From Bdellovibrionales bacterium (lineage in GTDB: Bacteria; Bdellovibrionota; Bdellovibrionia; Bdellovibrionales; UBA1609), in contig CBDHDF010000007.1 in assembly GCA_965261545.1 (NCBI GenBank), positions 224,001 to 288,000 of the forward strand: DNA of 64,000 nucleotides. The letters run 5' to 3'. The notes beneath the pieces are model-generated. The model was not told the origin of the DNA. It searched no databases and saw nothing but the letters and a program-made list of their open reading frames with translations. A program made the position numbers and the translations under genes. This document shows positions 666 through 50,800 of this stretch, piece after piece. Numbering within the stretch: the stretch's first letter is position 1; each line of letters begins with the position of its first letter.

Positions 666-2755
666 CGCCATCGCTGGAAGTCGGAGTTTTTTAAGAGAAC
701 CTATAAGTTCTTCGTGATTCATTAAGAACCTCCTATGTTTGGAACAAGACTGTCATATTGAGACAATCTAGGTTGAAGTGGTTTTTGTTGGTCATTCAAA
801 TTAATTTTGGTGGGATTTCCTAAGAGCAAATCTTTTATGGATTTAAAGTCGAAAATCTCACGACTTTCTAATTGAAGCTCCATGGCTGTAGATAAGTCCT
901 GCCAACTCACATGCTGAATCAAGTTGATAACTCTTAAATATTCATGCTCGGCACGGCTTGAATCTTGTTGCTTGAGGTATTGATAAAAATTTTCAAACAC
1001 ATTTGTTGGAAAAAGAATGGATCGGTGAGCCCATCTTACCATGGCTTGCGGCTTACGAACTAAAGAGGGAAGGATATGTTCAAGAAGAAGACTATGCTCC
1101 CCATCAGGTTTTCTTTGATGGCGAGCGACAATTTCTTGCTTCCCTCCTGCACGATAGATCGTGACATGATAGGGACCCTGTACGGTTTTACAGGGAGATT
1201 GGATCACCTCATCAGGTATGGAATATGTGGTTTTACCTATTCTCAAAGTCCCATAACCATTACTTTGACAAATATTCACCTTACAGAGAATATCTTCATC
1301 TCGTGGAGGCAAAGGCTTAAGAACTTTGGCCTCCTCCTCAAAGCGAGATTTGGTGGAGTCACTCTGATGCTGATCCATATAAGACTCTAAAAACTGATTC
1401 AAATGATCCCAGTCTTTAAAAACAATTCCTTTGTTTCTAACAATATTTTTTATCCGAGAACTGAAGGTTCGAATATCACGCTCCACATCTCCCTTGTCAG
1501 AGCCCTTCCCTGCGCGGCAGGGAAGAACCTTAAATCCATAGTATTGGATGGCTCGATCAAAAGATTGGGTGTAAATTCGCTGATTTCCTTTAAGAACTTT
1601 CTTCACACAGGGAGATAAATTATCAATACGGATGTTCGCACTCATCCCACCTATCTTTTCAAAAAAAGCATGCACCCCATCGATGAAACACTCATAGACA
1701 AGAAAGGGGTAGGCACGAACCCAACAGGTGCCACTACAAGGCAATGTTCCAAAATGGAGATGAACGATCTGAACACCATCGGCAAATGGTAAAGCAACCT
1801 TCTCCTTAAAATCAAACTGAGCCTGTTCTCCAGGATCATATCTTTGGCTGAAAAAACGCTCCTTGGGGCGAGAACCAAGAATCTCACAAACTCTTCTCTG
1901 AACCGTTCTCTCACTCCCACGATAACCCTCCTCAACTAATAGCTCATATATTTCACGGGCGGTGTTACTTGGGTTCAACTTCAAAAAGTACTTCACCCGA
2001 TCCATATATCCATTAAGGGGATCTGGGCGAGTTCTTTTGGACCTCGCCTTGTACTTCGGTGGGGTGTTGGACTTACAGTACTTGCGCACCGTCTTACGAT
2101 TGATCCCTAATTCACGAGATATTTCTGTCTTATTTTTACCACTGTGACTCAGGTCACGAATGCGGCCGAAAGTGTATTGACTAATCATAAGATCCTCCTC
2201 ATTGCTAACCTTTTGAGTTGCAAAAGGGAGGGACTCTGTGAGCTTAGTATCTATATCAGAAGAAGAGACTTCATTGTCTAGTATTTGAACACTCCCTGAA
2301 GATTGGTCACTTTTCATTGGCGACAACCTCCATATTGAAAGTGGGACATTTTAATTGGCGACGGCTTTAAGGGAAGCCTGTCTTCAAAAAGAAATTCCAT
2401 GAAAATTGAGGCAAATGTTGGAATCTTGTGGAATTTAAATACTTTAGAAAATGGGCACAGCCTAAACAGGCTTTTCTTGACTATATATTTAACCTCATTG
2501 AAATCCAGAAACAGTCTACAAATGAGAAATATGGAACCTGAATAGGCTGTCATGGAAGGACTCTCCAACACGGAGCCCCTTTCCAGGTCGACAAGAACCC
2601 AAAAGGAGTTCTTATCAGCTCGGAGCCTTTTTATGAGTAATATCAATTGATTATATGCGTCTCGGTTGACAATGCCAAAAATCACCATAGGTCCTCCTCT
2701 GAAAAGTGGCCACTTTTCATTGGCGACGGTGGGGCATTTTAATTGTCAGCTAACA
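666..2755 (-). mobile_element. IS21-family element A, copy 1 (left end, istA, first 57 bp of istB)
   Basis: Left end TGTTAGCTGACAATTAAAATGCCCCAC is identical to that at 49832. Bases 666-722 match the istB start at 54004. Confidence 0.92.
722..2188 (-). CDS. istA: IS21 transposase IstA (intact, ~488 aa)
   Basis: N-terminal HTH (ISRELGINRKTVRKY), PGEQAQFDF, RIDN, KGDVER. Likely start MISQ after a GAGGAGG RBS. Confidence 0.92.
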   Translation of the reverse strand: MISQYTFGRIRDLSHSGKNKTEISRELGINRKTVRKYCKSNTPPKYKARSKRTRPDPLNGYMDRVKYFLKLNPSNTAREIYELLVEEGYRGSERTVQRRVCEILGSRPKERFFSQRYDPGEQAQFDFKEKVALPFADGVQIVHLHFGTLPCSGTCWVRAYPFLVYECFIDGVHAFFEKIGGMSANIRIDNLSPCVKKVLKGNQRIYTQSFDRAIQYYGFKVLPCRAGKGSDKGDVERDIRTFSSRIKNIVRNKGIVFKDWDHLNQFLESYMDQHQSDSTKSRFEEEAKVLKPLPPRDEDILCKVNICQSNGYGTLRIGKTTYSIPDEVIQSPCKTVQGPYHVTIYRAGGKQEIVARHQRKPDGEHSLLLEHILPSLVRKPQAMVRWAHRSILFPTNVFENFYQYLKQQDSSRAEHEYLRVINLIQHVSWQDLSTAMELQLESREIFDFKSIKDLLLGNPTKINLNDQQKPLQPRLSQYDSLVPNIGGS

Positions 2756-2760
2756 AATAG

Positions 2761-4469
2761 TTACTATGAATCTCCGGGGTAGTTTGGACGCACGAATCCA
2801 CTATCCGTTCTTCGAATTTTTTCAAATGTCCGAGTTTTTAAATCATCCTACATTACATGAAATCATACTTTTTTAACGCTCTAATCCACCTTGGTGCATT
2901 TTTTTTCACCATGAGCTTTTCATAGTCAATTCCAGGGTCTTTGTAGGGGGTGTCATTACTTATGACTGAATAAACAACTCCCATCATTTTGTGACCAACG
3001 GCAATCACTGATCTCTTGTGCCCACGCCTTATAACAAGTGATTGGTATTTGCCTTTGAATTGTGAATTCGTCTTAATAGCACTATTGGCCATCTCACATA
3101 CCAACGATTTCACATATGTGTTCGCTTTCCTCGTTCGTGAAGACTTTTTTTCCTGCGCTCTCATTATTGGATGGGCAAATCCCCATCCAGGAGCAAAAAT
3201 TTCCTTTATTTTTAAAAGACTTCACATTGCCTCCTATTTCTGCAATCAAAAGCGCTGCACTTAATTCGTCAATTCCAGGTATAGTCTGGAGTAGATGCCA
3301 CTGCCTTTCATAGGGTTTCATACGAATGAAAAGTTCTTCTTCAATTTGAGAGCATTCTTTTTTCAAAAAATCTATTCGATCAAGAATGCGTTGAAGAACA
3401 AAACGATTTTCTTCCGTCATCTTTCCCGACAGGGCGTAAGAAAATTCTTCGGTCTTTTGACGTAAAGACCCTCTGGCAAGAGACATCAATTTAGAAACTG
3501 ATCTCTCTCCATTAGCTATGGCACGAATCATGGCCATACCAGATACGCAGTCAGCTTTAGACATTGCATAGGTTAAACGAATGCCTGAATATTCAAGAAC
3601 CTTATACATACGATTTTGTTCCGAAGATATTTGGCGGATCGTTTTTGTACGATAACGAGCCAAAAGTCTAATAGAACGAATCTCACGTGGAGGAATGAAG
3701 CTAGCTCTTAGAAGACCACAAGCACCAAGCTCTGCAATCCACTGGCTATCCAACACGTCAGTTTTTTTACCAGTAATATTTTTGACATGAAAGGCATTGA
3801 TAACATCTACTTCATAACCTTTTTCTGTCAAATCATCGTATAAAGAATTCCAATAAATCCATCCCTGTGCTCTCAAAAAGAACTCTCTCAACCTTATGTG
3901 GCTTCATCCAAGAGCGCATTCTAGGAAAATTTTTTGGAAAATTCTTGAACTCTTTTGTGAAAAACTTCTTCTTACCGTCTTCCACTTTGACAATCGTACA
4001 CATCAACATATGTTGATGAACATCTATTCCACAAACAGAACTATAAATAATATCCACATGACTCCTCCTTTCTGTTAGAAAAAAAGAAGGTGATAAAACT
4101 AGAGCCTTGGGATTTTGCCATAAATTCTAAAGCGAAAATAGGTCAACTTACTATACGTCCATACACTCAGAGTGCAGGTACATGCGTGGGTTCGATCCAA
4201 AGCTCAAGACCATGTTACTTCACGGAATTAAAATTACCAATCTATTCAACGGCCACTCATCTTATCACCTTCCAATAATGTTATTGCTTTATCCTTTATT
4301 GTATCGGAATCATACATGACAAAAATACCATCAAAAGTCCAGAGTAACTAAAAGAGGCCAATTATATAGACCAGCGAAGCTGTCCACCGAGTTGCTTCGT
4401 GCAAAGAAGTGGGGGCCTAGATAAGATTCATGGGCGTGGGTGGGGAAGCAAGGCGCCCCCATGAATGTT
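2761..4469 (-). mobile_element. IS110-family element, copy 1 (recombinase doubly frameshifted)
   Basis: Same sequence as the intact copies except a 4-bp ATCC duplication near 3858 and an A7 rather than A9 tract. AA core at both ends. Confidence 0.95.
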
Positions 4470-4815
4470 ACACATTTTCCATATTGGTGACTTTGGAAGT
4501 ATCCCAACCACTGACATCTGGGTTTGCCTTGATGGCTCCTAAAAACATACCTTTCATATCTTTAACCATAGAGGTGTCCCACCCACTTGTATCTGGATTT
4601 ACCTCAGCGGCATTTCGAAATAAATTCGCCATATCAACAACCTTGGAGGTATTCCAGCTACTTGTATTTGGATTTGCCTTGGTGGTCCCCAAAAACATAC
4701 CTCTCATATCTTTAACCATAGAGGTGTCCCAACCATTCGTATCTGGTATGGCTAAAACAGCTCTGTGAAACATATTTTTCATATTCGTAACAGCTGACAT
4801 ATTTCCTCCAAGGAC
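4470..4815 (-). repeat. 346-bp duplicated fragment of the BspA-repeat gene
   Basis: Matches 8572-8917 and 6521-6866. Confidence 0.95.
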
Positions 4816-6520
4816 TTACTATGAATCTCCGGGGTAGTTTGGACGCACGAATCCACTATCCGTTCTTCGAATTTTTTCAAATGTCCGAGTTTTTAAATCA
4901 TCCTACATTACATGAAATCATACTTTTTTAACGCTCTAATCCACCTTGGTGCATTTTTTTTCACCATGAGCTTTTCATAGTCAATTCCAGGGTCTTTGTA
5001 GGGGGTGTCATTACTTATGACTGAATAAACAACTCCCATCATTTTGTGACCAACGGCAATCACTGATCTCTTGTGCCCACGCCTTATAACAAGTGATTGG
5101 TATTTGCCTTTGAATTGTGAATTCGTCTTAATAGCACTATTGGCCATCTCACATACCAACGATTTCACATATGTGTTCGCTTTCCTCGTTCGTGAAGACT
5201 TTTTTTCCTGCGCTCTCATTATTGGATGGGCAAATCCCCATCCAGGAGCAAAAATTTCCTTTATTTTTAAAAGACTTCACATTGCCTCCTATTTCTGCAA
5301 TCAAAAGCGCTGCACTTAATTCGTCAATTCCAGGTATAGTCTGGAGTAGATGCCACTGCCTTTCATAGGGTTTCATACGAATGAAAAGTTCTTCTTCAAT
5401 TTGAGAGCATTCTTTTTTCAAAAAATCTATTCGATCAAGAATGCGTTGAAGAACAAAACGATTTTCTTCCGTCATCTTTCCCGACAGGGCGTAAGAAAAT
5501 TCTTCGGTCTTTTGACGTAAAGACCCTCTGGCAAGAGACATCAATTTAGAAACTGATCTCTCTCCATTAGCTATGGCACGAATCATGGCCATACCAGATA
5601 CGCAGTCAGCTTTAGACATTGCATAGGTTAAACGAATGCCTGAATATTCAAGAACCTTATACATACGATTTTGTTCCGAAGATATTTGGCGGATCGTTTT
5701 TGTACGATAACGAGCCAAAAGTCTAATAGAACGAATCTCACGTGGAGGAATGAAGCTAGCTCTTAGAAGACCACAAGCACCAAGCTCTGCAATCCACTGG
5801 CTATCCAACACGTCAGTTTTTTTACCAGTAATATTTTTGACATGAAAGGCATTGATAACATCTACTTCATAACCTTTTTCTGTCAAATCATCGTATAAAG
5901 AATTCCAATAAATCCCTGTGCTCTCAAAAAGAACTCTCTCAACCTTATGTGGCTTCATCCAAGAGCGCATTCTAGGAAAATTTTTTGGAAAATTCTTGAA
6001 CTCTTTTGTGAAAAACTTCTTCTTACCGTCTTCCACTTTGACAATCGTACACATCAACATATGTTGATGAACATCTATTCCACAAACAGAACTATAAATA
6101 ATATCCACATGACTCCTCCTTTCTGTTAGAAAAAAAGAAGGTGATAAAACTAGAGCCTTGGGATTTTGCCATAAATTCTAAAGCGAAAATAGGTCAACTT
6201 ACTATACGTCCATACACTCAGAGTGCAGGTACATGCGTGGGTTCGATCCAAAGCTCAAGACCATGTTACTTCACGGAATTAAAATTACCAATCTATTCAA
6301 CGGCCACTCATCTTATCACCTTCCAATAATGTTATTGCTTTATCCTTTATTGTATCGGAATCATACATGACAAAAATACCATCAAAAGTCCAGAGTAACT
6401 AAAAGAGGCCAATTATATAGACCAGCGAAGCTGTCCACCGAGTTGCTTCGTGCAAAGAAGTGGGGGCCTAGATAAGATTCATGGGCGTGGGTGGGGAAGC
6501 AAGGCGCCCCCATGAATGTT
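4816..6520 (-). mobile_element. IS110-family element, copy 2 (A7 frameshift)
   Basis: 1705 bp. ORF split into 5149-6108 and 4908-5219. Confidence 0.95.
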
Positions 6521-6866
6521 ACACATTTTCCATATTGGTGACTTTGGAAGTATCCCAACCACTGACATCTGGGTTTGCCTTGATGGCTCCTAAAAACATA
6601 CCTTTCATATCTTTAACCATAGAGGTGTCCCACCCACTTGTATCTGGATTTACCTCAGCGGCATTTCGAAATAAATTCGCCATATCAACAACCTTGGAGG
6701 TATTCCAGCTACTTGTATTTGGATTTGCCTTGGTGGTCCCCAAAAACATACCTCTCATATCTTTAACCATAGAGGTGTCCCAACCATTCGTATCTGGTAT
6801 GGCTAAAACAGCTCTGTGAAACATATTTTTCATATTCGTAACAGCTGACATATTTCCTCCAAGGAC
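6521..6866 (-). repeat. 346-bp duplicated fragment of the BspA-repeat gene
   Basis: Matches 8572-8917. Part of a 2051-bp tandem unit. Confidence 0.95.
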
Positions 6867-8571
6867 TTACTATGAATCTCCGGGGTAGTTTGGACGCACG
6901 AATCCACTATCCGTTCTTCGAATTTTTTCAAATGTCCGAGTTTTTAAATCATCCTACATTACATGAAATCATACTTTTTTAACGCTCTAATCCACCTTGG
7001 TGCATTTTTTTTCACCATGAGCTTTTCATAGTCAATTCCAGGGTCTTTGTAGGGGGTGTCATTACTTATGACTGAATAAACAACTCCCATCATTTTGTGA
7101 CCAACGGCAATCACTGATCTCTTGTGCCCACGCCTTATAACAAGTGATTGGTATTTGCCTTTGAATTGTGAATTCGTCTTAATAGCACTATTGGCCATCT
7201 CACATACCAACGATTTCACATATGTGTTCGCTTTCCTCGTTCGTGAAGACTTTTTTTCCTGCGCTCTCATTATTGGATGGGCAAATCCCCATCCAGGAGC
7301 AAAAATTTCCTTTATTTTTAAAAGACTTCACATTGCCTCCTATTTCTGCAATCAAAAGCGCTGCACTTAATTCGTCAATTCCAGGTATAGTCTGGAGTAG
7401 ATGCCACTGCCTTTCATAGGGTTTCATACGAATGAAAAGTTCTTCTTCAATTTGAGAGCATTCTTTTTTCAAAAAATCTATTCGATCAAGAATGCGTTGA
7501 AGAACAAAACGATTTTCTTCCGTCATCTTTCCCGACAGGGCGTAAGAAAATTCTTCGGTCTTTTGACGTAAAGACCCTCTGGCAAGAGACATCAATTTAG
7601 AAACTGATCTCTCTCCATTAGCTATGGCACGAATCATGGCCATACCAGATACGCAGTCAGCTTTAGACATTGCATAGGTTAAACGAATGCCTGAATATTC
7701 AAGAACCTTATACATACGATTTTGTTCCGAAGATATTTGGCGGATCGTTTTTGTACGATAACGAGCCAAAAGTCTAATAGAACGAATCTCACGTGGAGGA
7801 ATGAAGCTAGCTCTTAGAAGACCACAAGCACCAAGCTCTGCAATCCACTGGCTATCCAACACGTCAGTTTTTTTACCAGTAATATTTTTGACATGAAAGG
7901 CATTGATAACATCTACTTCATAACCTTTTTCTGTCAAATCATCGTATAAAGAATTCCAATAAATCCCTGTGCTCTCAAAAAGAACTCTCTCAACCTTATG
8001 TGGCTTCATCCAAGAGCGCATTCTAGGAAAATTTTTTGGAAAATTCTTGAACTCTTTTGTGAAAAACTTCTTCTTACCGTCTTCCACTTTGACAATCGTA
8101 CACATCAACATATGTTGATGAACATCTATTCCACAAACAGAACTATAAATAATATCCACATGACTCCTCCTTTCTGTTAGAAAAAAAGAAGGTGATAAAA
8201 CTAGAGCCTTGGGATTTTGCCATAAATTCTAAAGCGAAAATAGGTCAACTTACTATACGTCCATACACTCAGAGTGCAGGTACATGCGTGGGTTCGATCC
8301 AAAGCTCAAGACCATGTTACTTCACGGAATTAAAATTACCAATCTATTCAACGGCCACTCATCTTATCACCTTCCAATAATGTTATTGCTTTATCCTTTA
8401 TTGTATCGGAATCATACATGACAAAAATACCATCAAAAGTCCAGAGTAACTAAAAGAGGCCAATTATATAGACCAGCGAAGCTGTCCACCGAGTTGCTTC
8501 GTGCAAAGAAGTGGGGGCCTAGATAAGATTCATGGGCGTGGGTGGGGAAGCAAGGCGCCCCCATGAATGTT
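6867..8571 (-). mobile_element. IS110-family element, copy 3 (A7 frameshift)
   Basis: 1705 bp. ORF split into 7200-8159 and 6959-7270. Confidence 0.95.
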
Positions 8572-9931
8572 ACACATTTTCCATATTGGTGACTTTGGAA
8601 GTATCCCAACCACTGACATCTGGGTTTGCCTTGATGGCTCCTAAAAACATACCTTTCATATCTTTAACCATAGAGGTGTCCCACCCACTTGTATCTGGAT
8701 TTACCTCAGCGGCATTTCGAAATAAATTCGCCATATCAACAACCTTGGAGGTATTCCAGCTACTTGTATTTGGATTTGCCTTGGTGGTCCCCAAAAACAT
8801 ACCTCTCATATCTTTAACCATAGAGGTGTCCCAACCATTCGTATCTGGTATGGCTAAAACAGCTCTGTGAAACATATTTTTCATATTCGTAACAGCTGAC
8901 ATATTTCCTCCAAGGACTTTCTTAAGGAGAGAATTACCTTTAAATGCACGAGATAGATCTTTCCATCCCATATTGCCAAAATTGACAACCTCGAAGAGTA
9001 AATTTCTTGAAGATACTGAGGTATTTTCAAAGCCCTCACAAGTACCTATTATCCTCATCGTATATTCTCCAGCTTTCGCATAGGTATGTCTCTTGTCAGT
9101 ATCCTGAAAAGATGTCACCTCGCTAACAGCAGTTTGATCTCCCCAATCCACAGTAAAATTATATTTAAGACTTGAACTTTCTTTAAGGGGAAGGGTGAAT
9201 GAAAAATCACCTTCAGGAATACGCCATTTTGTGACAAAGTGATTAATCTCGTTGGTTACGGAGGACTTGGCTACAAAATTGACGTCACTTTGACTTGCCT
9301 TGATAACAGCTGGATGAGATGATATGTCTTGCACATCAAAATTTCCTGAAAACGTGTTGTCTTGTGTGCATGATAAAATCTTTTCTACATTGGGTTCCCC
9401 AATAACAACAGTGACATCTCCAAGGTTGGAATCGCAAGTACCTTTTATGTTATAGTCTGCCATATTGGATGAAGAAATGGCAGACAATTCCTTGAAGCTC
9501 AAATCTATTGGAATGAGAATGAGATTATTATCAACAGTGACACTCTGCTTGTTTCCTTTATGGGTGACCGTAATAGTGGCTTTTTTTGAAGTGATTTGTC
9601 GGGTATCAACATATCCTGAGAAAGTATTGGAACGACAGGGTACTTCTACAGGTTTGGTTATGGGCTCTCCAATAACTATCGAAACATTTCCATTTCCCCC
9701 CAAAGCTGAATGGCAGGCTCCCCAAACAAGATATTCGCTCGCATTGGCTGAAGAAATTGGCAGAAGTGATCCATTGATACTAAGTTTTGTAACACTGAAA
9801 ACCTTTGTCTTTTTTCTATTTGATCCTTTATCACAACCCACAAAAATCATTAGAGATAAAATGAATAAAAAGTGAAACTTTAAATATTTTTTGACTATCA
9901 TGATGAATTTCCTCAAGTTGACATTTTTCAA
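8570..9931 (-). pseudogene. BspA-family (DUF285) repeat surface lipoprotein, truncated at the C-terminus by IS insertion
   Basis: Lipobox-like IFVGC, PKD-like YNFTVDWGD..HTYAKAGEY, ~22-aa repeats WDTSxVxxMxxMF. The stop codon lies at the IS110 junction in mid-repeat. Confidence 0.85.
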
Positions 9932-31078: not shown

Positions 31079-32793
31079 GTAACTATTCAGGGGGTGCTGC
31101 ATTAATTCGAACAATTTTTTTAAAAAAAGTATAAAAATTCTTGACAAGTTTTTGAAGCAAACGACCTCTTTCATTTGTTCTTTATCGAATATGTTCCTGC
31201 ATATGGCTTAAACTCTCTGAGAGCCATAGTATTGAAAGATTGTGAAACATAGGTCGCGGGGGGCACTTCTCATTCCTTTTGCTTCTTAGAACGAATCCTA
31301 GTGCATTTTTTTTAATGAAAAAAAGGCATGTTAATATTTTCATAAGGTAAGTATGAAAATAGAAAATATTGACGTGTCTTCAGCCATAAATAAAATCAGG
31401 AAGCTTCTTAAGAAAGAGAAGTCCCTTTCTCCCGCTTTTATTGTGGCCATTGAGTTGTTGATCAAAATCATCACTATTCTAGTAAATCAAAAAAAATTAA
31501 ATAGTCAAAACAGTAGTATTGCCCCTTCTCAAGATCCGAATGGCCCTAAAAAGAAACCTAAGGAAGAAACTGGTAAGAAGCCAGGAGGACAACCCGGACA
31601 CGAAGGAGCTACTTTAAAACCCGTGGATACTCCAGACAAGGTGGAGTTCATTTCTATTAATAAAGAGGAACTTCCTCCAGGTGATTACATTTCTTCTGGA
31701 GTTGAAAAGCGTCAAGTATTTGAGGTAGACCTTTCTGTGCATGTCACGGAGTATCAAGGAGAAATCCTCGAAGACCAAGATGGGAATCAGTGGGTTGCAG
31801 GTTTTCCAGAAGGAATCAATAACCCAACTCAATATGGCCCTTCTGTGAAAGCTCACTCAGTTTATATGTCCCAGTTTCAGTTAATCCCTCATCTTCGAGT
31901 CGCAAGTTACTTTAATCAATGGGGTCTATCGCTTGCTGGATCTACGGTACACAATTTTAACAAATCTGCCTTTGAGGCTCTGGAAGCTTTTGAGGAGTGG
32001 GCAAAGGAAACTCTTCTGAACTCACCTTTGATTCATGCTGACGAAACTGGAGTGAATGTTAATGGGAAGAGGCTGTGGTTTCACCTCTTGTCCAATGATA
32101 CTGTGGTTCTCTATCAGGTGGACGAAAAAAGAGGCGCAGAGGCTATGGATCGCATGGGAATTCTTCCAAAATACACAGGGATTGTTTGTCATGACCATTG
32201 GAAACCTTATTATACATATACTTCCTGCATTCATGCCCTTTGCAATGCGCACCATTTAAGGGAGCTTCAAAGAGCTTGGGAGCAAGATGATCAAAAATGG
32301 GCAAAAGAAATGAAGTCTCTTTTAGAGACAATAAACAAAGAGGTGCACGATACGCAGAACCAATGCCTTTCACAAGACCGAATTGAATATTACAAAGAGA
32401 AATATCGAAATATTCTCTTCGAAGGGGAAAAGGAATCTCCATTAATGGAGAGGACAGAGAAAAAAAAGAAGGGAAAGGTTAAACAATCCAAATCTAGAAA
32501 TTTACTAGATCGACTGAGAAACTTTGAAGATGATACCTTGCTCTTTATGAAGGACCCCATAGTTCCATTTACGAATAATATAGCAGAAAATGATCTGAGA
32601 ATGACCAAAGTTCAGCAGAAAATATCTGGGTGCTTTCGTTCGTTGATGGGAGCCAAGACATTTTGTAGAAACCGAAGCTTTCTCCTGACTTGCCAGAAAA
32701 ATGGCATAGAACCTAAAGATGCTCTAAATATGCTATTTCAAGGAAAACTTCCCTCATTTATGACTCGAATTCGCCCACCCCCTGAATAGTTAC
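31079..32793 (+). mobile_element. IS66-family element (single-ORF ISBst12 type), intact
   Basis: 18-bp IR GTAACTATTCAGGGGGTG; 8-bp TSD TTTTACTC. Confidence 0.95.
31353..32789 (+). CDS. IS66 transposase TnpC
   Basis: NSQNSSIAPSQD, PGGQPGHEG, HADETG, CNAHHLREL, FTNNIAENDLR, KISGCFRS. Confidence 0.95.
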   Translation: MKIENIDVSSAINKIRKLLKKEKSLSPAFIVAIELLIKIITILVNQKKLNSQNSSIAPSQDPNGPKKKPKEETGKKPGGQPGHEGATLKPVDTPDKVEFISINKEELPPGDYISSGVEKRQVFEVDLSVHVTEYQGEILEDQDGNQWVAGFPEGINNPTQYGPSVKAHSVYMSQFQLIPHLRVASYFNQWGLSLAGSTVHNFNKSAFEALEAFEEWAKETLLNSPLIHADETGVNVNGKRLWFHLLSNDTVVLYQVDEKRGAEAMDRMGILPKYTGIVCHDHWKPYYTYTSCIHALCNAHHLRELQRAWEQDDQKWAKEMKSLLETINKEVHDTQNQCLSQDRIEYYKEKYRNILFEGEKESPLMERTEKKKKGKVKQSKSRNLLDRLRNFEDDTLLFMKDPIVPFTNNIAENDLRMTKVQQKISGCFRSLMGAKTFCRNRSFLLTCQKNGIEPKDALNMLFQGKLPSFMTRIRPPPE

Positions 32794-35856: not shown

Positions 35857-36321
35857 TTAATTGTGTAACGAAAGAACTGTGGACTTTTGGGAACAACAGA
35901 ATTTAAATTTCTTTCCACTTCCGCATGGACAGGATTGATTTCTTCCAATTTTTTCGCTTTGGTCATTTTTCTGCTGTGATGCAGACATATCTTCAGTTAC
36001 AATTTTTTTTTGCTTTTCATCTTCCAAATCCTCATCCAAATTATCAAAAAGAATATCTCCTAGATTCTGGTGAAAGTAACGATTTTTAAATTGAGATATG
36101 AGCATCATAAAAATACATGTAAGAACCAAAAGTGTGAGTGAAGCAAAAAACAAAGAAGATGCTTGCATCTGAGTTAATGGGAGGATGAGTGCCAGTAAAT
36201 AACCAAATCCAAATACCAATAAGGAAATAAGAAGAGATATAAAGGATCCCAAAGAAAGTAATATTAAAAGTCCAAAAATCATTGCTATTTTTTGCTCCTG
36301 TCGAATACAATGAATCCGCAT
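35857..36321 (-). CDS. Membrane protein with C-terminal SEC-C zinc motif (IS passenger)
   Basis: Two hydrophobic helices; KIGRNQSCPCGSGKKFKFCC. Confidence 0.85.
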   Translation of the reverse strand: MRIHCIRQEQKIAMIFGLLILLSLGSFISLLISLLVFGFGYLLALILPLTQMQASSLFFASLTLLVLTCIFMMLISQFKNRYFHQNLGDILFDNLDEDLEDEKQKKIVTEDMSASQQKNDQSEKIGRNQSCPCGSGKKFKFCCSQKSTVLSLHN

Positions 36322-38946: not shown

Positions 38947-39186
38947 TAAGTAAATTAAGAGATTAAACCATGGTTTTTTTATGGGTAAAGTAATGAGGGG
39001 GATAAATCATGGAAATTGAATTATTTTCTTGGTTTTTAATGCGGTAATTCTGCGACGTCGAAATTAGGCCCATTTTCTGTTGAGAAACTCGGATATACCC
39101 CAAAATATCATAGAGAGTCTTCTTCTTGCTTCATTAGCGGCTCACCTCACATCAAGTGTTGTTTTGAGGATAGGAAGAACTAAAGT

Positions 39187-42100
39187 AACATTCATGGGGG
39201 CGCCTTGCTTCCCCACCCACGCCCATGAATCTTATCTAGGCCCCCACTTCTTTGCACGAAGCAACTCGGTGGACAGCTTCGCTGGTCTATATAATTGGCC
39301 TCTTTTAGTTACTCTGGACTTTTGATGGTATTTTTGTCATGTATGATTCCGATACAATAAAGGATAAAGCAATAACATTATTGGAAGGTGATAAGATGAG
39401 TGGCCGTTGAATAGATTGGTAATTTTAATTCCGTGAAGTAACATGGTCTTGAGCTTTGGATCGAACCCACGCATGTACCTGCACTCTGAGTGTATGGACG
39501 TATAGTAAGTTGACCTATTTTCGCTTTAGAATTTATGGCAAAATCCCAAGGCTCTAGTTTTATCACCTTCTTTTTTTCTAACAGAAAGGAGGAGTCATGT
39601 GGATATTATTTATAGTTCTGTTTGTGGAATAGATGTTCATCAACATATGTTGATGTGTACGATTGTCAAAGTGGAAGACGGTAAGAAGAAGTTTTTCACA
39701 AAAGAGTTCAAGAATTTTCCAAAAAATTTTCCTAGAATGCGCTCTTGGATGAAGCCACATAAGGTTGAGAGAGTTCTTTTTGAGAGCACAGGGATTTATT
39801 GGAATTCTTTATACGATGATTTGACAGAAAAAGGTTATGAAGTAGATGTTATCAATGCCTTTCATGTCAAAAATATTACTGGTAAAAAAACTGACGTGTT
39901 GGATAGCCAGTGGATTGCAGAGCTTGGTGCTTGTGGTCTTCTAAGAGCTAGCTTCATTCCTCCACGTGAGATTCGTTCTATTAGACTTTTGGCTCGTTAT
40001 CGTACAAAAACGATCCGCCAAATATCTTCGGAACAAAATCGTATGTATAAGGTTCTTGAATATTCGCATTCGTTTAACATTCATGGGGGCGCCTTGCTTC
40101 CCCACCCACGCCCATGAATCTTATCTAGGCCCCCACTTCTTTGCACGAAGCAACTCGGTGGACAGCTTCGCTGGTCTATATAATTGGCCTCTTTTAGTTA
40201 CTCTGGACTTTTGATGGTATTTTTGTCATGTATGATTCCGATACAATAAAGGATAAAGCAATAACATTATTGGAAGGTGATAAGATGAGTGGCCGTTGAA
40301 TAGATTGGTAATTTTAATTCCGTGAAGTAACATGGTCTTGAGCTTTGGATCGAACCCACGCATGTACCTGCACTCTGAGTGTATGGACGTATAGTAAGTT
40401 GACCTATTTTCGCTTTAGAATTTATGGCAAAATCCCAAGGCTCTAGTTTTATCACCTTCTTTTTTTCTAACAGAAAGGAGGAGTCATGTGGATATTATTT
40501 ATAGTTCTGTTTGTGGAATAGATGTTCATCAACATATGTTGATGTGTACGATTGTCAAAGTGGAAGACGGTAAGAAGAAGTTTTTCACAAAAGAGTTCAA
40601 GAATTTTCCAAAAAATTTTCCTAGAATGCGCTCTTGGATAAAGCCACATAAGGTTGAGAGAGTTCTTTTTGAGAGCACAGGGATTTATTGGAATTCTTTA
40701 TACGATGATTTGACAGAAAAAGGTTATGAAGTAGATGTTATCAATGCCTTTCATGTCAAAAATATTACTGGTAAAAAAACTGACGTGTTGGATAGCCAGT
40801 GGATTGCAGAGCTTGGTGCTTGTGGTCTTCTAAGAGCTAGCTTCATTCCTCCACGTGAGATTCGTTCTATTAGACTTTTGGCTCGTTATCGTACAAAAAC
40901 GATCCGCCAAATATCTTCGGAACAAAATCGTATGTATAAGGTTCTTGAATATTCAGGCATTCGTTTAACCTATGCAATGTCTAAAGCTGACTGCGTATCT
41001 GGTATGGCCATGATTCGTGCCATAGCTAATGGAGAGAGATCAGTTTCTAAATTGATGTCTCTTGCCAGAGGGTCTTTACGTCAAAAGACCGAAGAATTTT
41101 CTTACGCCCTGTCGGGAAAGATGACGGAAGAAAATCGTTTTGTTCTTCAACGCATTCTTGATCGAATAGATTTTTTGAAAAAAGAATGCTCTCAAATTGA
41201 AGAAGAACTTTTCATTCGTATGAAACCCTATGAAAGGCAGTGGCATCTACTCCAGACTATACCTGGAATTGACGAATTAAGTGCAGCGCTTTTGATTGCA
41301 GAAATAGGAGGCAATGTGAAGTCTTTTAAAAATAAAGGAAATTTTTGCTCCTGGATGGGGATTTGCCCATCCAATAATGAGAGCGCAGGAAAAAAAGTCT
41401 TCACGAACGAGGAAAGCGAACACATATGTGAAATCGTTGGTATGTGAGATGGCCAATAGTGCTATTAAGACGAATTCACAATTCAAAGGCAAATACCAAT
41501 CACTTGTTATAAGGCGTGGGCACAAGAGATCAGTGATTGCCGTTGGTCACAAAATGATGGGAGTTGTTTATTCAGTCATAAGTAATGACACCCCCTACAA
41601 AGACCCTGGAATTGACTATGAAAAGCTCATGGTGAAAAAAAATGCACCAAGGTGGATTAGAGCGTTAAAAAAGTATGATTTCATGTAATGTAGGATGATT
41701 TAAAAACTCGGACATTTGAAAAAATTCGAAGAACGGATAGTGGATTCGTGCGTCCAAACTACCCCGGAGATTCATAGTAACCTATGCAATGTCTAAAGCT
41801 GACTGCGTATCTGGTATGGCCATGATTCGTGCCATAGCTAATGGAGAGAGATCAGTTTCTAAATTGATGTCTCTTGCCAGAGGGTCTTTACGTCAAAAGA
41901 CCGAAGAATTTTCTTACGCCCTGTCGGGAAAGATGACGGAAGAAAATCGTTTTGTTCTTCAACGCATTCTTGATCGAATAGATTTTTTGAAAAAAGAATG
42001 CTCTCAAATTGAAGAAGAACTTTTCATTCGTATGAAACCCTATGAAAGGCAGTGGCATCTACTCCAGACTATACCTGGAATTGACGAATTAAGTGCAGCG

Positions 42101-42592
42101 CTTTTGATTGCAGAAATAGGAGGCAATGTGAAGTCTTTTAAAAATAAAGGAAATTTTTGCTCCTGGATGGGGATTTGCCCATCCAATAATGAGAGCGCAG
42201 GAAAAAAAGTCTTCACGAACGAGGAAAGCGAACACATATGTGAAATCGTTGGTATGTGAGATGGCCAATAGTGCTATTAAGACGAATTCACAATTCAAAG
42301 GCAAATACCAATCACTTGTTATAAGGCGTGGGCACAAGAGATCAGTGATTGCCGTTGGTCACAAAATGATGGGAGTTGTTTATTCAGTCATAAGTAATGA
42401 CACCCCCTACAAAGACCCTGGAATTGACTATGAAAAGCTCATGGTGAAAAAAAATGCACCAAGGTGGATTAGAGCGTTAAAAAAGTATGATTTCATGTAA
42501 TGTAGGATGATTTAAAAACTCGGACATTTGAAAAAATTCGAAGAACGGATAGTGGATTCGTGCGTCCAAACTACCCCGGAGATTCATAGTAA
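39187..42592 (+). mobile_element. IS110 copy 4, split by self-insertion of copy 5
   Basis: 5' part 39187-40077 (with a 2-bp deletion near 40066); 3' part 41781-42592 resumes at TAA|CCTATGC. Confidence 0.93.
40076..41780 (+). mobile_element. IS110 copy 5 (A7 frameshift), inserted within the recombinase gene of copy 4
   Basis: Junctions CGTTT-AA-CATTC and ATAGT-AA-CCTAT. Confidence 0.95.
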
Positions 42593-42810
42593 ACTACCCC
42601 GGAGATTCATAGTAACATTCATGGGGGCGCCTTGCTTCCCCACCCACGCCCATGAATCTTATCTAGGCCCCCACTTCTTTGCACGAAGCAACTCGGTGGA
42701 CAGCTTCGCTGGTCTATATAATTGGCCTCTTTTAGTTACTCTGGACTTTTGATGGTATTTTTGTCATGTATGATTCCGATACAATAAAGGATAAAGCAAT
42801 AACATTATTG

Positions 42811-42997
42811 GAAGGTGATAAGATGAGTGGCCGTTGAATAGATTGGTAATTTTAATTCCGTGAAGTAACATGGTCTTGAGCTTTGGATCGAACCCACGCA
42901 TGTACCTGCACTCTGAGTGTATGGACGTATAGTAAGTTGACCTATTTTCGCTTTAGAATTTATGGCAAAATCCCAAGGCTCTAGTTTTATCACCTTC
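42811..42997 (+). ncRNA. Putative bridge RNA (target loop plus donor loop), present in every IS110 left end
   Basis: 11-bp closing stem GAAGGTGATAA/TTATCACCTTC; two internal loops whose strands match target and donor sequences. Transcript boundaries are unknown. Confidence 0.75.
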
Positions 42998-43025
42998 TTT
43001 TTTTCTAACAGAAAGGAGGAGTCAT

Positions 43026-44228
43026 GTGGATATTATTTATAGTTCTGTTTGTGGAATAGATGTTCATCAACATATGTTGATGTGTACGATTGTCAAAGTG
43101 GAAGACGGTAAGAAGAAGTTTTTCACAAAAGAGTTCAAGAATTTTCCAAAAAATTTTCCTAGAATGCGCTCTTGGATGAAGCCACATAAGGTTGAGAGAG
43201 TTCTTTTTGAGAGCACAGGGATTTATTGGAATTCTTTATACGATGATTTGACAGAAAAAGGTTATGAAGTAGATGTTATCAATGCCTTTCATGTCAAAAA
43301 TATTACTGGTAAAAAAACTGACGTGTTGGATAGCCAGTGGATTGCAGAGCTTGGTGCTTGTGGTCTTCTAAGAGCTAGCTTCATTCCTCCACGTGAGATT
43401 CGTTCTATTAGACTTTTGGCTCGTTATCGTACAAAAACGATCCGCCAAATATCTTCGGAACAAAATCGTATGTATAAGGTTCTTGAATATTCAGGCATTC
43501 GTTTAACCTATGCAATGTCTAAAGCTGACTGCGTATCTGGTATGGCCATGATTCGTGCCATAGCTAATGGAGAGAGATCAGTTTCTAAATTGATGTCTCT
43601 TGCCAGAGGGTCTTTACGTCAAAAGACCGAAGAATTTTCTTACGCCCTGTCGGGAAAGATGACGGAAGAAAATCGTTTTGTTCTTCAACGCATTCTTGAT
43701 CGAATAGATTTTTTGAAAAAAGAATGCTCTCAAATTGAAGAAGAACTTTTCATTCGTATGAAACCCTATGAAAGGCAGTGGCATCTACTCCAGACTATAC
43801 CTGGAATTGACGAATTAAGTGCAGCGCTTTTGATTGCAGAAATAGGAGGCAATGTGAAGTCTTTTAAAAATAAAGGAAATTTTTGCTCCTGGATGGGGAT
43901 TTGCCCATCCAATAATGAGAGCGCAGGAAAAAAAAAGTCTTCACGAACGAGGAAAGCGAACACATATGTGAAATCGTTGGTATGTGAGATGGCCAATAGT
44001 GCTATTAAGACGAATTCACAATTCAAAGGCAAATACCAATCACTTGTTATAAGGCGTGGGCACAAGAGATCAGTGATTGCCGTTGGTCACAAAATGATGG
44101 GAGTTGTTTATTCAGTCATAAGTAATGACACCCCCTACAAAGACCCTGGAATTGACTATGAAAAGCTCATGGTGAAAAAAAATGCACCAAGGTGGATTAG
44201 AGCGTTAAAAAAGTATGATTTCATGTAA
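43026..44228 (+). CDS. IS110-family DEDD recombinase (intact, 400 aa)
   Basis: GIDVH / FESTG / KTDVLD (DEDD RuvC-like), TIPGI, SNNESAG serine motif. AGGAGGAG RBS with GTG start. Confidence 0.96.
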   Translation: MDIIYSSVCGIDVHQHMLMCTIVKVEDGKKKFFTKEFKNFPKNFPRMRSWMKPHKVERVLFESTGIYWNSLYDDLTEKGYEVDVINAFHVKNITGKKTDVLDSQWIAELGACGLLRASFIPPREIRSIRLLARYRTKTIRQISSEQNRMYKVLEYSGIRLTYAMSKADCVSGMAMIRAIANGERSVSKLMSLARGSLRQKTEEFSYALSGKMTEENRFVLQRILDRIDFLKKECSQIEEELFIRMKPYERQWHLLQTIPGIDELSAALLIAEIGGNVKSFKNKGNFCSWMGICPSNNESAGKKKSSRTRKANTYVKSLVCEMANSAIKTNSQFKGKYQSLVIRRGHKRSVIAVGHKMMGVVYSVISNDTPYKDPGIDYEKLMVKKNAPRWIRALKKYDFM

Positions 44229-44318
44229 TGTAGGATGATTTAAAAACTCGGACATTTGAAAAAATTCGAAGAACGGATAGTGGATTCGTGCGTCCAAACT
44301 ACCCCGGAGATTCATAGT

Positions 44319-46025
44319 AACATTCATGGGGGCGCCTTGCTTCCCCACCCACGCCCATGAATCTTATCTAGGCCCCCACTTCTTTGCACGAAGCAACTCG
44401 GTGGACAGCTTCGCTGGTCTATATAATTGGCCTCTTTTAGTTACTCTGGACTTTTGATGGTATTTTTGTCATGTATGATTCCGATACAATAAAGGATAAA
44501 GCAATAACATTATTGGAAGGTGATAAGATGAGTGGCCGTTGAATAGATTGGTAATTTTAATTCCGTGAAGTAACATGGTCTTGAGCTTTGGATCGAACCC
44601 ACGCATGTACCTGCACTCTGAGTGTATGGACGTATAGTAAGTTGACCTATTTTCGCTTTAGAATTTATGGCAAAATCCCAAGGCTCTAGTTTTATCACCT
44701 TCTTTTTTTCTAACAGAAAGGAGGAGTCATGTGGATATTATTTATAGTTCTGTTTGTGGAATAGATGTTCATCAACATATGTTGATGTGTACGATTGTCA
44801 AAGTGGAAGACGGTAAGAAGAAGTTTTTCACAAAAGAGTTCAAGAATTTTCCAAAAAATTTTCCTAGAATGCGCTCTTGGATGAAGCCACATAAGGTTGA
44901 GAGAGTTCTTTTTGAGAGCACAGGGATTTATTGGAATTCTTTATACGATGATTTGACAGAAAAAGGTTATGAAGTAGATGTTATCAATGCCTTTCATGTC
45001 AAAAATATTACTGGTAAAAAAACTGACGTGTTGGATAGCCAGTGGATTGCAGAGCTTGGTGCTTGTGGTCTTCTAAGAGCTAGCTTCATTCCTCCACGTG
45101 AGATTCGTTCTATTAGACTTTTGGCTCGTTATCGTACAAAAACGATCCGCCAAATATCTTCGGAACAAAATCGTATGTATAAGGTTCTTGAATATTCAGG
45201 CATTCGTTTAACCTATGCAATGTCTAAAGCTGACTGCGTATCTGGTATGGCCATGATTCGTGCCATAGCTAATGGAGAGAGATCAGTTTCTAAATTGATG
45301 TCTCTTGCCAGAGGGTCTTTACGTCAAAAGACCGAAGAATTTTCTTACGCCCTGTCGGGAAAGATGACGGAAGAAAATCGTTTTGTTCTTCAACGCATTC
45401 TTGATCGAATAGATTTTTTGAAAAAAGAATGCTCTCAAATTGAAGAAGAACTTTTCATTCGTATGAAACCCTATGAAAGGCAGTGGCATCTACTCCAGAC
45501 TATACCTGGAATTGACGAATTAAGTGCAGCGCTTTTGATTGCAGAAATAGGAGGCAATGTGAAGTCTTTTAAAAATAAAGGAAATTTTTGCTCCTGGATG
45601 GGGATTTGCCCATCCAATAATGAGAGCGCAGGAAAAAAAAAGTCTTCACGAACGAGGAAAGCGAACACATATGTGAAATCGTTGGTATGTGAGATGGCCA
45701 ATAGTGCTATTAAGACGAATTCACAATTCAAAGGCAAATACCAATCACTTGTTATAAGGCGTGGGCACAAGAGATCAGTGATTGCCGTTGGTCACAAAAT
45801 GATGGGAGTTGTTTATTCAGTCATAAGTAATGACACCCCCTACAAAGACCCTGGAATTGACTATGAAAAGCTCATGGTGAAAAAAAATGCACCAAGGTGG
45901 ATTAGAGCGTTAAAAAAGTATGATTTCATGTAATGTAGGATGATTTAAAAACTCGGACATTTGAAAAAATTCGAAGAACGGATAGTGGATTCGTGCGTCC
46001 AAACTACCCCGGAGATTCATAGTAA
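44319..46025 (+). mobile_element. IS110 copy 7 (intact)
   Basis: Right junction ATAGT-AA-CTATTCAGGGGG equals the IS66 terminus. Confidence 0.96.
44731..45933 (+). CDS. IS110-family DEDD recombinase (intact, 400 aa)
   Basis: Same protein as 43026-44228. Confidence 0.96.
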   Translation: MDIIYSSVCGIDVHQHMLMCTIVKVEDGKKKFFTKEFKNFPKNFPRMRSWMKPHKVERVLFESTGIYWNSLYDDLTEKGYEVDVINAFHVKNITGKKTDVLDSQWIAELGACGLLRASFIPPREIRSIRLLARYRTKTIRQISSEQNRMYKVLEYSGIRLTYAMSKADCVSGMAMIRAIANGERSVSKLMSLARGSLRQKTEEFSYALSGKMTEENRFVLQRILDRIDFLKKECSQIEEELFIRMKPYERQWHLLQTIPGIDELSAALLIAEIGGNVKSFKNKGNFCSWMGICPSNNESAGKKKSSRTRKANTYVKSLVCEMANSAIKTNSQFKGKYQSLVIRRGHKRSVIAVGHKMMGVVYSVISNDTPYKDPGIDYEKLMVKKNAPRWIRALKKYDFM

Positions 46026-46254
46026 CTATTCAGGGGGTGGGCGAATTCGAGTCATAAATGAGGGAAGTTTTCCTTGAAATAGCATATTTAGAGCATCTTT
46101 AGGTTCTATGCAAAATTTCACCTAGTTTGACCCACCCAATTTCACCTGGTTTGACCCACCCAATTTCACGAAGTTTGACCCACTGAATTTCACCAAACAT
46201 TGACCCACTTAGATCTTCATAGATATTCTTTCTGCGCTACGCATTAACGAGGAG

Positions 46255-50697: not shown

Positions 50698-50800
50698 GTA
50701 ACTGTTCAGGGGGTAGCAGAGTTCAAGAGGTAAATTGCTCCTTCTTACCAGAGAAAATATAAATCTCTCTCTGTAAACTCATGCCCCCCTGAATAGATAC
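50698..50800. mobile_element. 103-bp IS66-derived MITE
   Basis: Ends GTAACTGTTCAGGGGG and CCCCCTGAATAGATAC; 8-bp TSD AAATATTT; absent from IS4-D copy 1 (~35776). Confidence 0.9.

Follow-up and report, generated by a model that had tools for sequence, protein, structure and literature searches.

The insertion sequence analyzed here, which lies in a window of 64,000 nucleotides from a Bdellovibrionales bacterium, is a real and multi-copy member of the IS110 family that, judged by its sequence, looks active and takes the tips of IS66 elements as its target. The first loop of its predicted bridge RNA almost certainly opens the first 11 bases of the IS66 terminal repeat, with joining in one orientation at an AA core that lies 2 bases inward from the tip. 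The second loop reads the element's own ends in a way that fits a pseudo-duplex folded from the junction of a single-stranded circle, comparable to the attC site of an integron. We consider the complete picture, i.e., an active IS110 bridge system with IS66 tips as target, an inverted guide frame and a folded one-strand donor, to be probable with some reservation, and for the use of a folded single-stranded donor throughout a widespread IS110 branch (proteins of about 400 aa, AG or AA as coding-strand core, 89 elements from many phyla) the balance leans slightly in favor. Features of the window and of related elements are collected in Table 1.

Table 1. Positions of the IS110 element, its predicted bridge RNA, its donor and target sites, and related elements
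Feature	Position	Strand	Basis
IS110 recombinase gene, 400 aa	43026..44228	+	Pfam/NF033542 matches, residue alignment to IS621
Tandem array at one IS66 tip	39185..46025	+	sequence comparison
Core dinucleotide AA (TT in guide frame), in tandem right-end/left-end junction	42614..42615	+	
First 7 bases of left end; antisense strand is the predicted top arm of donor	42616..42622	+	
Short G-C hairpin, would close one side of folded donor	42623..42641	.	weak
Left-end-internal 9-mer, 8/9 same-sense identity to loop-2 5' strand	42642..42650	+	
Left copy of sub-terminal inverted repeat, 36 bases inside core	42652..42659	+	
65-bp insertion, ~95% identical to stretch inside one end of high-copy IS256 element	42695..42759	+	
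Predicted bridge RNA with closing stem	42811..42997	+	fold, alignment of relatives
11-bp closing stem	42811-21/42987-97		
Loop-1 stem	42829-34/42870-75		
Left target guide; agrees with IS66 tip arm at 7/7, with a single mismatch or bulge at the core	42835..42843	+	
Loop-1 inner hairpin	42845-59		
Right target guide, including core (42865-68), followed by two handshake bases (42869-70)	42865..42870	+	
Loop-2 5' strand, corrected left donor guide	42891..42900	+	
Loop-2 inner hairpin	42901..42927	+	RNAalifold
Right donor guide with core (42929-35) and handshake (42936-37)	42929..42937	+	
Right end: right inverted-repeat copy (44308-15), three-base donor arm, core	44308..44320	+	
Occupied target: right-end tip of IS66 copy also broken by IS21 element and other insertions	46022..46032	+	
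Intact single-gene IS66, 1715 bp, 478 aa, 8-bp duplication, two free target tips	31079..32793	+	
Six gene-less ~105-bp mini-elements with IS110 ends	G000 C2:233571, C2:289188, C3:20914, C6:3592, C10:576500, C11:725900		

The element has a unit length of 1705 bp, with about 410 non-coding bases upstream of the recombinase gene, as is typical of the IS621 type, and about 90 downstream; the RNA is situated upstream and not, as in the IS1111 group, downstream of the gene. A domain search assigned PF01548 and PF02371 to the recombinase, which matches NF033542 with 245 bits (cut-off 140) and contains a RuvC-like DEDD domain as well as a Tnp domain with a catalytic serine. Residues D12, E62, D99, D102 and S299 align with the catalytic residues of IS621, and the structure model has a mean pLDDT of 87.9. 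The tandem array is composed of a truncated copy, a frameshifted full-length copy, a partial duplication and two intact copies, and the sequence of its right-end/left-end junction is the one that a circle junction would have. Throughout the genome, 53 left-end and 37 right-end motifs were counted. All 36 copies of loop 1 are identical, as are all 35 of loop 2, and an intact frame of 400 aa follows from 9 of the 37 gene starts. An A run (43928-43936 in the window) consists of nine A in 14 copies, seven in 18 and eight in three; some of the resulting frameshifts may be assembly errors because a short-read contig of run X1 has the intact form. Related proteins of 314 aa stop at the same place. 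Three further frameshifted IS110 copies with a period of 2051 bp are found on the minus strand at 722-9931, where two right ends are joined to an unrelated AA site, a local duplication fitting one-sided recombination. The 65-bp insertion in the leader is missing from relatives. The matching IS256 element has more than 50 hits, and the shared stretch lies about 380 bp past its stop codon on the opposite strand. This piece might supply a promoter; a sigma-70 promoter scan, which included the right-end/left-end junction, found none.

The initial annotation had proposed that the region upstream of the gene encodes an IS110 bridge RNA, and all letters and coordinates that it quoted are present in the window. 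Homologous leaders occur in 42 relatives and their stems carry compensatory changes, which argues for a structured non-coding RNA with two loops and for its designation as a bridge RNA. The region folds better than 200 of 200 shuffled sequences (z -2.8), and the closing stem is near certain from the single sequence (pair probability 0.97-1.0). The stem and inner hairpin drawn for loop 1 were recovered with compensatory changes when RNAalifold was applied to a 32-sequence alignment, whereas the pair probability of the loop-1 stem is only 0.04 in the single-sequence fold. The hairpin of loop 2, placed at 42905-24 in the earlier drawing, exists and is longer than drawn, since 42901-03 pair with 42925-27 with many double changes; it comprises five pairs, one of which shows as many as 16 double changes across the 32 sequences. 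A relative in runs X6/X7 with roughly 85-90% DNA identity, known from low-depth contigs without flanks, shows two compensatory changes in the inner hairpin and retains the long guide with one transition. An Rfam search with the predicted RNA gave no match at E<=1.

Relatives were collected at several distances. A single-protein search of genome contigs retrieved no close relatives with flanks, 3 of 400 other genomes in the phylum sample matched at E<=1e-80 with proteins about 32-36% identical, and relatives at 65-80% identity are known from their protein sequences only. A 41-protein alignment led to 79 genome and 80 metagenome loci. Forty-three loci share about 39-48% identity, 42 of them have a left-end anchor, and 34 elements remained after copies were collapsed and the window was excluded. 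In these elements, the 3' strand of loop 1 strongly tracks the left flank, with both read in the same sense (z 9.4 over 31 elements; here and below, permutation tests on related elements inflate significance), and this covariation persists after clustering at 80, 70 and 60% with one value per protein cluster. The 5' strand follows the reverse complement of the right flank weakly (z 2.8, 25 elements) and best in the register of the window, and the register of this long target guide is not fixed after clustering. Tests of loop 1 against the flanks of the relatives in the orientation known from IS621 were null. In a wider set of 43 more distant elements, 42 of them with an AG core, the RNA repeats the word at the left junction with 7.7 of 8 letters agreeing (z 20.7), and the reverse-complement control yielded z 0.7. 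The suggestion that the guides are written antisense to the recombinase gene is well supported by these results. With guides in an antisense frame, the AA core, which most relatives have as AG, is equivalent to the TT/CT core of IS621 on the other strand; since coding-strand AG is the IS621 CT core read from the other side, the inversion can be regarded as a property of the branch, and it places the RNA at the left-donor end. The same orientation holds in multi-copy relatives with up to 45 sites, in which almost only the short guide specifies the site and the long-guide arm is nearly free, so that the element of the window is unusually specific. Relatives in G044 and G041 (loci L244-L303), with about 60 and 30 copies, respectively, need hardly more for insertion than a word of 4-6 bases dictated by the short guide; they have U-rich long guides, and the flank facing these is almost free.

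In right junctions at off-target sites, the base preceding AA comes from the donor and the one following it from the target, and the crossover must therefore lie within AA. This is consistent with the AA/TT core originally proposed, as is the handshake signal, which in the relatives covers exactly the next two nucleotides (42616-17 in the window): these first two bases of the left end agree with the two that follow the short guide, the first in 30 of 31 and the second in 31 of 31 elements, and the third and fourth bases do not match. The count excludes L138 with its ambiguous A run as well as L022 and L140, which have no usable end. The first of the two handshake bases in the right donor guide (42936-37) mismatches the IS66 target. 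Identity of the target, orientation, core and handshake, together with guide-to-site and repeat covariation, could all be established by comparing sequences.

For the donor loop, the earlier assignment stood on one side and fell on the other. Its 3' strand does act as the presumed guide for the right end, which it tracks in 28 elements (z 9.9). The stretch 42896-903, previously taken as the left donor guide, exhibits no covariation in that register (z -1.4), and half of it lies within a covarying stem. Overlooked in that annotation was a site inside the left end that is copied by the donor loop, namely a 9-mer located 27-35 bases inside the left end and adjoining the left copy of the inverted repeat. 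Among the 34 close relatives, the best match of the loop-2 5' strand to this internal 9-mer ranges from 5 to 9 of 9 (variable positions, p 0.002). For an independent donor set, 70 of the 107 remaining loci offered an anchor, and 55 loop strands were cut by their own flanking motif, blind to the DNA site; they gave z 12.7 when one DNA bulge was allowed and z 7.8 ungapped, with position 4 alone reaching z 8.1. Over all 89 relatives, the values are z 13.4, 11.0, 7.9 and 2.9 at 80, 70, 60 and 55% clustering, respectively, and z 13 over 59 protein clusters. In 208 close pairs with different guides, an element's own pairing was better in 148 cases and the swapped one in 13, and 47 were tied. Exceptions concern position 1, which is A versus G in 13 of 89 elements, and position 9, which matches in 37 of 89, and a bulge is needed in 32 of 89. 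A replicate on 45 viral or more distant loci permitted extraction of one usable case. The correspondence between guide and site in the donor loop is evident from this covariation.

The internal 9-mer also outcompetes the DNA that an IS621-type donor guide would read. The 5' strand of loop 2 prefers it over the true duplex in 29 of 29 junctions, with a mean match of 7.2/9 versus 2.6/9 and a best sliding duplex match of 4.0, and donor guides on opposite strands beside the core, as in the IS621 type, were not found. As the left guide copies the 9-mer in the same sense, both donor guides would read one and the same DNA strand; this should be the antisense strand, because same-sense sequences cannot pair and a search of the sense strand found no shared partner.

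The element's ends have a matching architecture. A sub-terminal inverted repeat of 8-12 bp occurs in 29 of 29 elements, and not one that is absent or 2-3 bp long as in the IS621 type. Its two copies (42652-59/44308-15) are complementary at positions 2-8 in all 29, and they covary (positions 7-9, z 9.2). In 23 of 29 elements, the antisense strand has a T-G wobble as its first, innermost pair, which the sense strand shows in none. In 25 of 29, the fold of the antisense junction is lower in energy than that of the sense junction, which is weak evidence because G-rich strands generally fold better by wobble; for the window, the values are -9.5 and -8.5 kcal/mol, respectively, and the proposed fold is the minimum-energy structure with modest significance (z -1.7, 13 of 200 shuffles as good). 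In 5' to 3' direction, the antisense junction begins with the left repeat, which a single base separates from the 9-base guide partner; a small hairpin comes next, then a 7-base arm whose last bases are those of the handshake, and after it the core, three bases and the right repeat. The hairpin (42623..42641) lacks a counterpart in several relatives and displays no strand preference (11 versus 13 of 29). Exactly these end features are retained by the six gene-less mini-elements of about 105 bp, four of which have an intact repeat that is altered on both sides in comparison with the full element.

We infer the fold and its use, its strandedness, the order of strand exchange and the expression of the RNA as follows. 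By analogy with IS621 and CazIS110-1, the element would be copied out as a single-stranded circle that supplies its own second arm. The donor would be recognized on one strand, with the antisense strand of the circle junction folding back: the 8-12-bp end repeats would pair, the small hairpin would close the far side, and a ready-made bubble would arise between them, of the size opened by the donor loop in IS621, in which the guide partner faces the 7-base arm and the core. The right donor guide would pair with core and right end, and the left donor guide with the opposite arm, i.e., the strand of the internal 9-mer, in place of the true complementary strand. Handshake pairs may then pull strand exchange forward, as inferred from the same two systems, and one-sided reactions at the right end could give rise to tandem and partial copies.

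It is possible, albeit unlikely, that the same pairing of guide and site takes place on a double-stranded circle, in which the 45 bp that separate the end repeats would be extruded in a cruciform-like manner by recombinase and supercoiling, so that a free single-stranded circle would be unnecessary. Every covariation result fits this equally well, and the centroid structures of both strands contain the same repeat stem; melting 45 bp is generally expensive, and the wobble in the first repeat pair, exclusively antisense in 23 of 29 elements, speaks for one strand. The published evidence divides as well: in the accessible text, CazIS110-1 preferred a double-stranded donor at one junction (10.1101/2025.10.25.684509), and single-strand excision is reported for two family members.

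Less probable still, and in our judgment quite doubtful, is that the 9-mer works as RNA, either in an antisense transcript of the left end that pairs with loop 2 and controls the bridge RNA or as one of twin protein-binding sites in one transcript, with the donor DNA being read chiefly by right donor guide and handshake. The accessible parts of the literature provide precedents, namely an antisense RNA pairing with the leader in ISPpu9 (PMC12288879) and excision of IS621 that needs only donor half-site recognition (10.64898/2026.08.31.748434), and the A/G difference at guide position 1 in 13 of 89 elements points in the same direction. A common sense-strand partner was, however, found neither upstream (z -0.3) nor in the leader (z 1.5), the signal after the stop codon is weak (z 2.2), the reverse-complement control is null, and the left box of ISPpu9 apparently lacks the motif in the text at hand. 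Moreover, neither the constant abutment of the motif on the end repeat nor its retention in mini-elements without a gene would be explained.

An ordinary duplex donor of the IS621 type, in which the left end would be paired through its first bases with 42896-903 and the likeness of the 9-mer would be a relic of duplication, is very improbable: the 6/8 match in the window and a geometry seen by cryo-EM for IS621 (PMC11208158, accessible text) are set against the lack of covariation in that register (z -1.4) and in a loop-1-like register, the position of three of its bases within the covarying stem, and the fact that a relic would not follow the guide across proteins that are 32-50% identical.

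On the target side, loop 1 agrees with the IS66 tip at 7/7 plus 5/5 positions that are freely variable in relatives. The corresponding 11-mer occurs 36 times in the genome, compared to 4.1 occurrences expected from composition, and 33 of these are IS66-type tips. Sixteen of the 36 sit directly behind a right end of the element (6 of 13 right tips, 7 of 17 left tips, 2 of 3 other IS66-type tips and 1 of 3 unrelated sites), which amounts to 15 of 33 at IS66-type tips versus 1 of 3 elsewhere. Taken together with the covariation in relatives, this occupancy speaks strongly for loop 1 being the target loop for the IS66 tip, as first suggested. The 37 right junctions are distributed over 10 tandem donor junctions, 15 IS66-type tips, one perfect non-IS66 site, six sites within the element and five others (one single-mismatch site, one tip shortened by another insertion, three local duplications), and insertion sites do follow the IS66-tip word that had been predicted. 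Left flanks end in T in 28 of 28 distinct cases and in GT in 26 of 28, with no consensus further out. The end of a MITE, which had been put forward as a 9/9 target, must be abandoned: it matches the RNA at 9/9, has no AA core, and was found behind a right end in 0 of 15 cases (Fisher p 0.002); the other MITE end, likewise a tip with one mismatch, was used in 0 of 13 (Fisher p 0.004), and in both counts several MITE copies are not independent because they share flanks. A possible exception is the left junction C2:559494, where a 400-bp flank is duplicated beside a MITE end and the right end is lost.

Within the window, IS66 tip sites are located at 31079-89 (minus), 32783-93 (plus) and 46022-32 (minus), and the MITE end at 50790-800. 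The IS66 transposase matches NF033517 with 285 bits (cut-off 180), and the element, which we take to belong to the single-gene subgroup, has terminal inverted repeats and the 8-bp duplication that is the rule for IS66. Insertion of the IS110 element leaves these duplications in place: they are kept in 9 of 11 paired IS66 copies, five of which carry an IS110 insertion, and a sixth duplication across an IS110-carrying IS66 spans 21 kb. The surrounding region (33592-54786) is a nest of insertion sequences, in which an IS4 copy is split by ISL3 and by IS66, the IS66 holds an IS21 element and a further insertion, a MITE is present at 50698-50800, and a 154-aa gene is duplicated at 35857 (minus) and 50881 (plus). 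Among 383 other genomes of the order, the junction pattern matched in three, none of them beside an IS110 gene, and at the ends of an IS110 element near an IS66 gene in genome G029 an IS66-type tip was not found.

We give hardly any credence to the view that IS66 tips are selected through the IS66 transposase or the structure of the IS66 end rather than through loop 1. Fifteen of 18 target-type right junctions are indeed intact IS66-type tips, and the long guide arm adds little in relatives; yet a perfect 11-mer outside IS66-type ends and a one-mismatch site are both used, MITE tips with one mismatch are not, and sites for the short guide by itself number 3780 in the genome. The left end may conceivably imitate an IS66 end, which would let composites move as units: its first 16 bases do resemble the IS66 repeat, but the motif accords with the left-end pattern of the branch itself, and the preserved duplications are silent on the order of events.

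Several small elements are related to these ends. A palindromic element of 47-55 bp (G000 C2:618582-618611, C6:99936-99965 and seven copies in the repeated region C2:345420-383708) consists of the IS110 left end, whose start is repeated in inverted form to close it, and is flanked by 8-bp duplications, 8/8 in two cases; either it was moved by the IS66 transposase or it is what remained after an IS110 reaction had removed an IS66 between its two tips. The second handshake base is C and not A in four left ends of mini-elements, and the same change is seen in a decayed RNA copy (C11:69171) and in the X6/X7 relative. At G000 C2:284802, C2:856129 and C10:577795, the first 16 bases are those of the IS110 left end and other sequence follows, in one case that of an IS66-type MITE; these are possibly deletion scars through a shared G run.

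The element resembles IS621 and ISCro4 (IS622) in its recombinase with DEDD and serine residues and in a two-loop RNA upstream of the gene (PMC11208160, PMC11208158, 10.1101/2025.05.14.653916; structures PDB 8wt6, 9t56), and furthermore in the left target guide of 7+2 bases, the short right guide, a two-nucleotide core with T as its second base in the guide frame, and the two-nucleotide handshake (described in PMC11208158). It differs from IS621 in that the protein is distant (400 versus 328 aa, E 3e-15), the guide frame is not in gene sense with the bottom-strand match first, there is no match between the left donor guide and the strand across from the core, and the repeat of 8-12 bp lies 29-37 bases away on one side, while that of IS621 has 2-3 bp around a 14-bp donor. 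With the IS1111 group (ISEc11, ISKpn4, ISPa11) it shares an RNA in which the complement of the top strand comes before what matches the bottom strand (PMC11187229) as well as longer sub-terminal repeats with three bases outside on the right. In that group, the RNA is located downstream, the proteins have 330-350 aa, and the repeat of 11-13 bp keeps a distance of 7 bp to the left end and of 3 bp to the right one, whereas here the distances are 29-37 and 3. Siddiquee et al. link this strand order to IS1111 elements with downstream RNA (PMC11187229); here it goes with an upstream RNA. ISEc21 of the IS110 group likewise has an upstream RNA aimed at another insertion sequence family, but it hits catalytic codons of IS3-family genes and has the IS110-type strand order (PMC11187229). 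For CazIS110-1, the top strand is copied out, a top-strand single-stranded donor integrates and a bottom-strand one does not, and a double-stranded donor is about 20-fold better at one junction (10.1101/2025.10.25.684509); compared by description only, its accessible text has guides on opposite strands and neither hairpin nor fold-back. Single-stranded circles are reported for IS621 (10.64898/2026.08.31.748434), and the tandem and partial copies seen here fit the one-sided reactions described in 10.64898/2026.08.14.744561.

Our element also resembles IS4321 and IS5075 in having the terminal repeats of another transposon as its target; Partridge and Hall are said to have described in 2003 that these two target the terminal repeats of Tn21. 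In integrons, recombination uses a single strand of attC that has folded up as an imperfect duplex; there, a tyrosine recombinase acts, extrahelical bases are read by the protein and no guide RNA is involved. The likeness thus lies in the folded single-strand substrate, for which a guide RNA and an IS110 recombinase would be used here instead.

Targeting of ends or genes of other elements is already known for the IS110 family (IS4321/IS5075, ISEc21). In the published IS110-family text that could be searched, most subscription journals and ISfinder lying outside this search, targeting of IS66 is not described. The same applies, in the accessible text, to the present orientation in combination with an upstream RNA (including 10.1101/2024.06.21.599552, PMC13626964, 10.64898/2026.03.19.712850) and, in text exclusive of figures, to a folded or same-strand donor (including PMC11208160, PMC12288879, 10.64898/2026.10.21.760802); Extended Data Fig. 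10c of Durrant et al., Fig. 1B of the CazIS110-1 preprint and Fig. S12 of 10.64898/2026.10.21.760802 may have a bearing on novelty. Compared with the members described in these texts, the element is set apart by its inverted guide frame and its same-strand donor signature. Published covariation screens covered 25 bases on each side of the core (PMC11208160, 10.64898/2026.10.21.760802, as far as their accessible text goes), and the internal site, 27-35 bases in, is at or past the edge of such screens.

Targeting of IS66 tips adds a clean further case of elements parasitising elements. The reading as a folded-strand donor, if true, would constitute an undescribed mode of working for a large branch of the IS110 family. 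As one junction strand would supply both arms for the donor loop, circles that have been copied out would be able to insert without second-strand synthesis, and unfolded duplex DNA would not be mistaken for a donor. Donors for these recombinases are predicted not to be reducible to a 14-bp duplex. Whether IS110 circles are single- or double-stranded, and how a guide for two strands works on a single-stranded circle, is disputed in the accessible literature of 2025-2026, and the branch described here offers an answer at the level of sequence.
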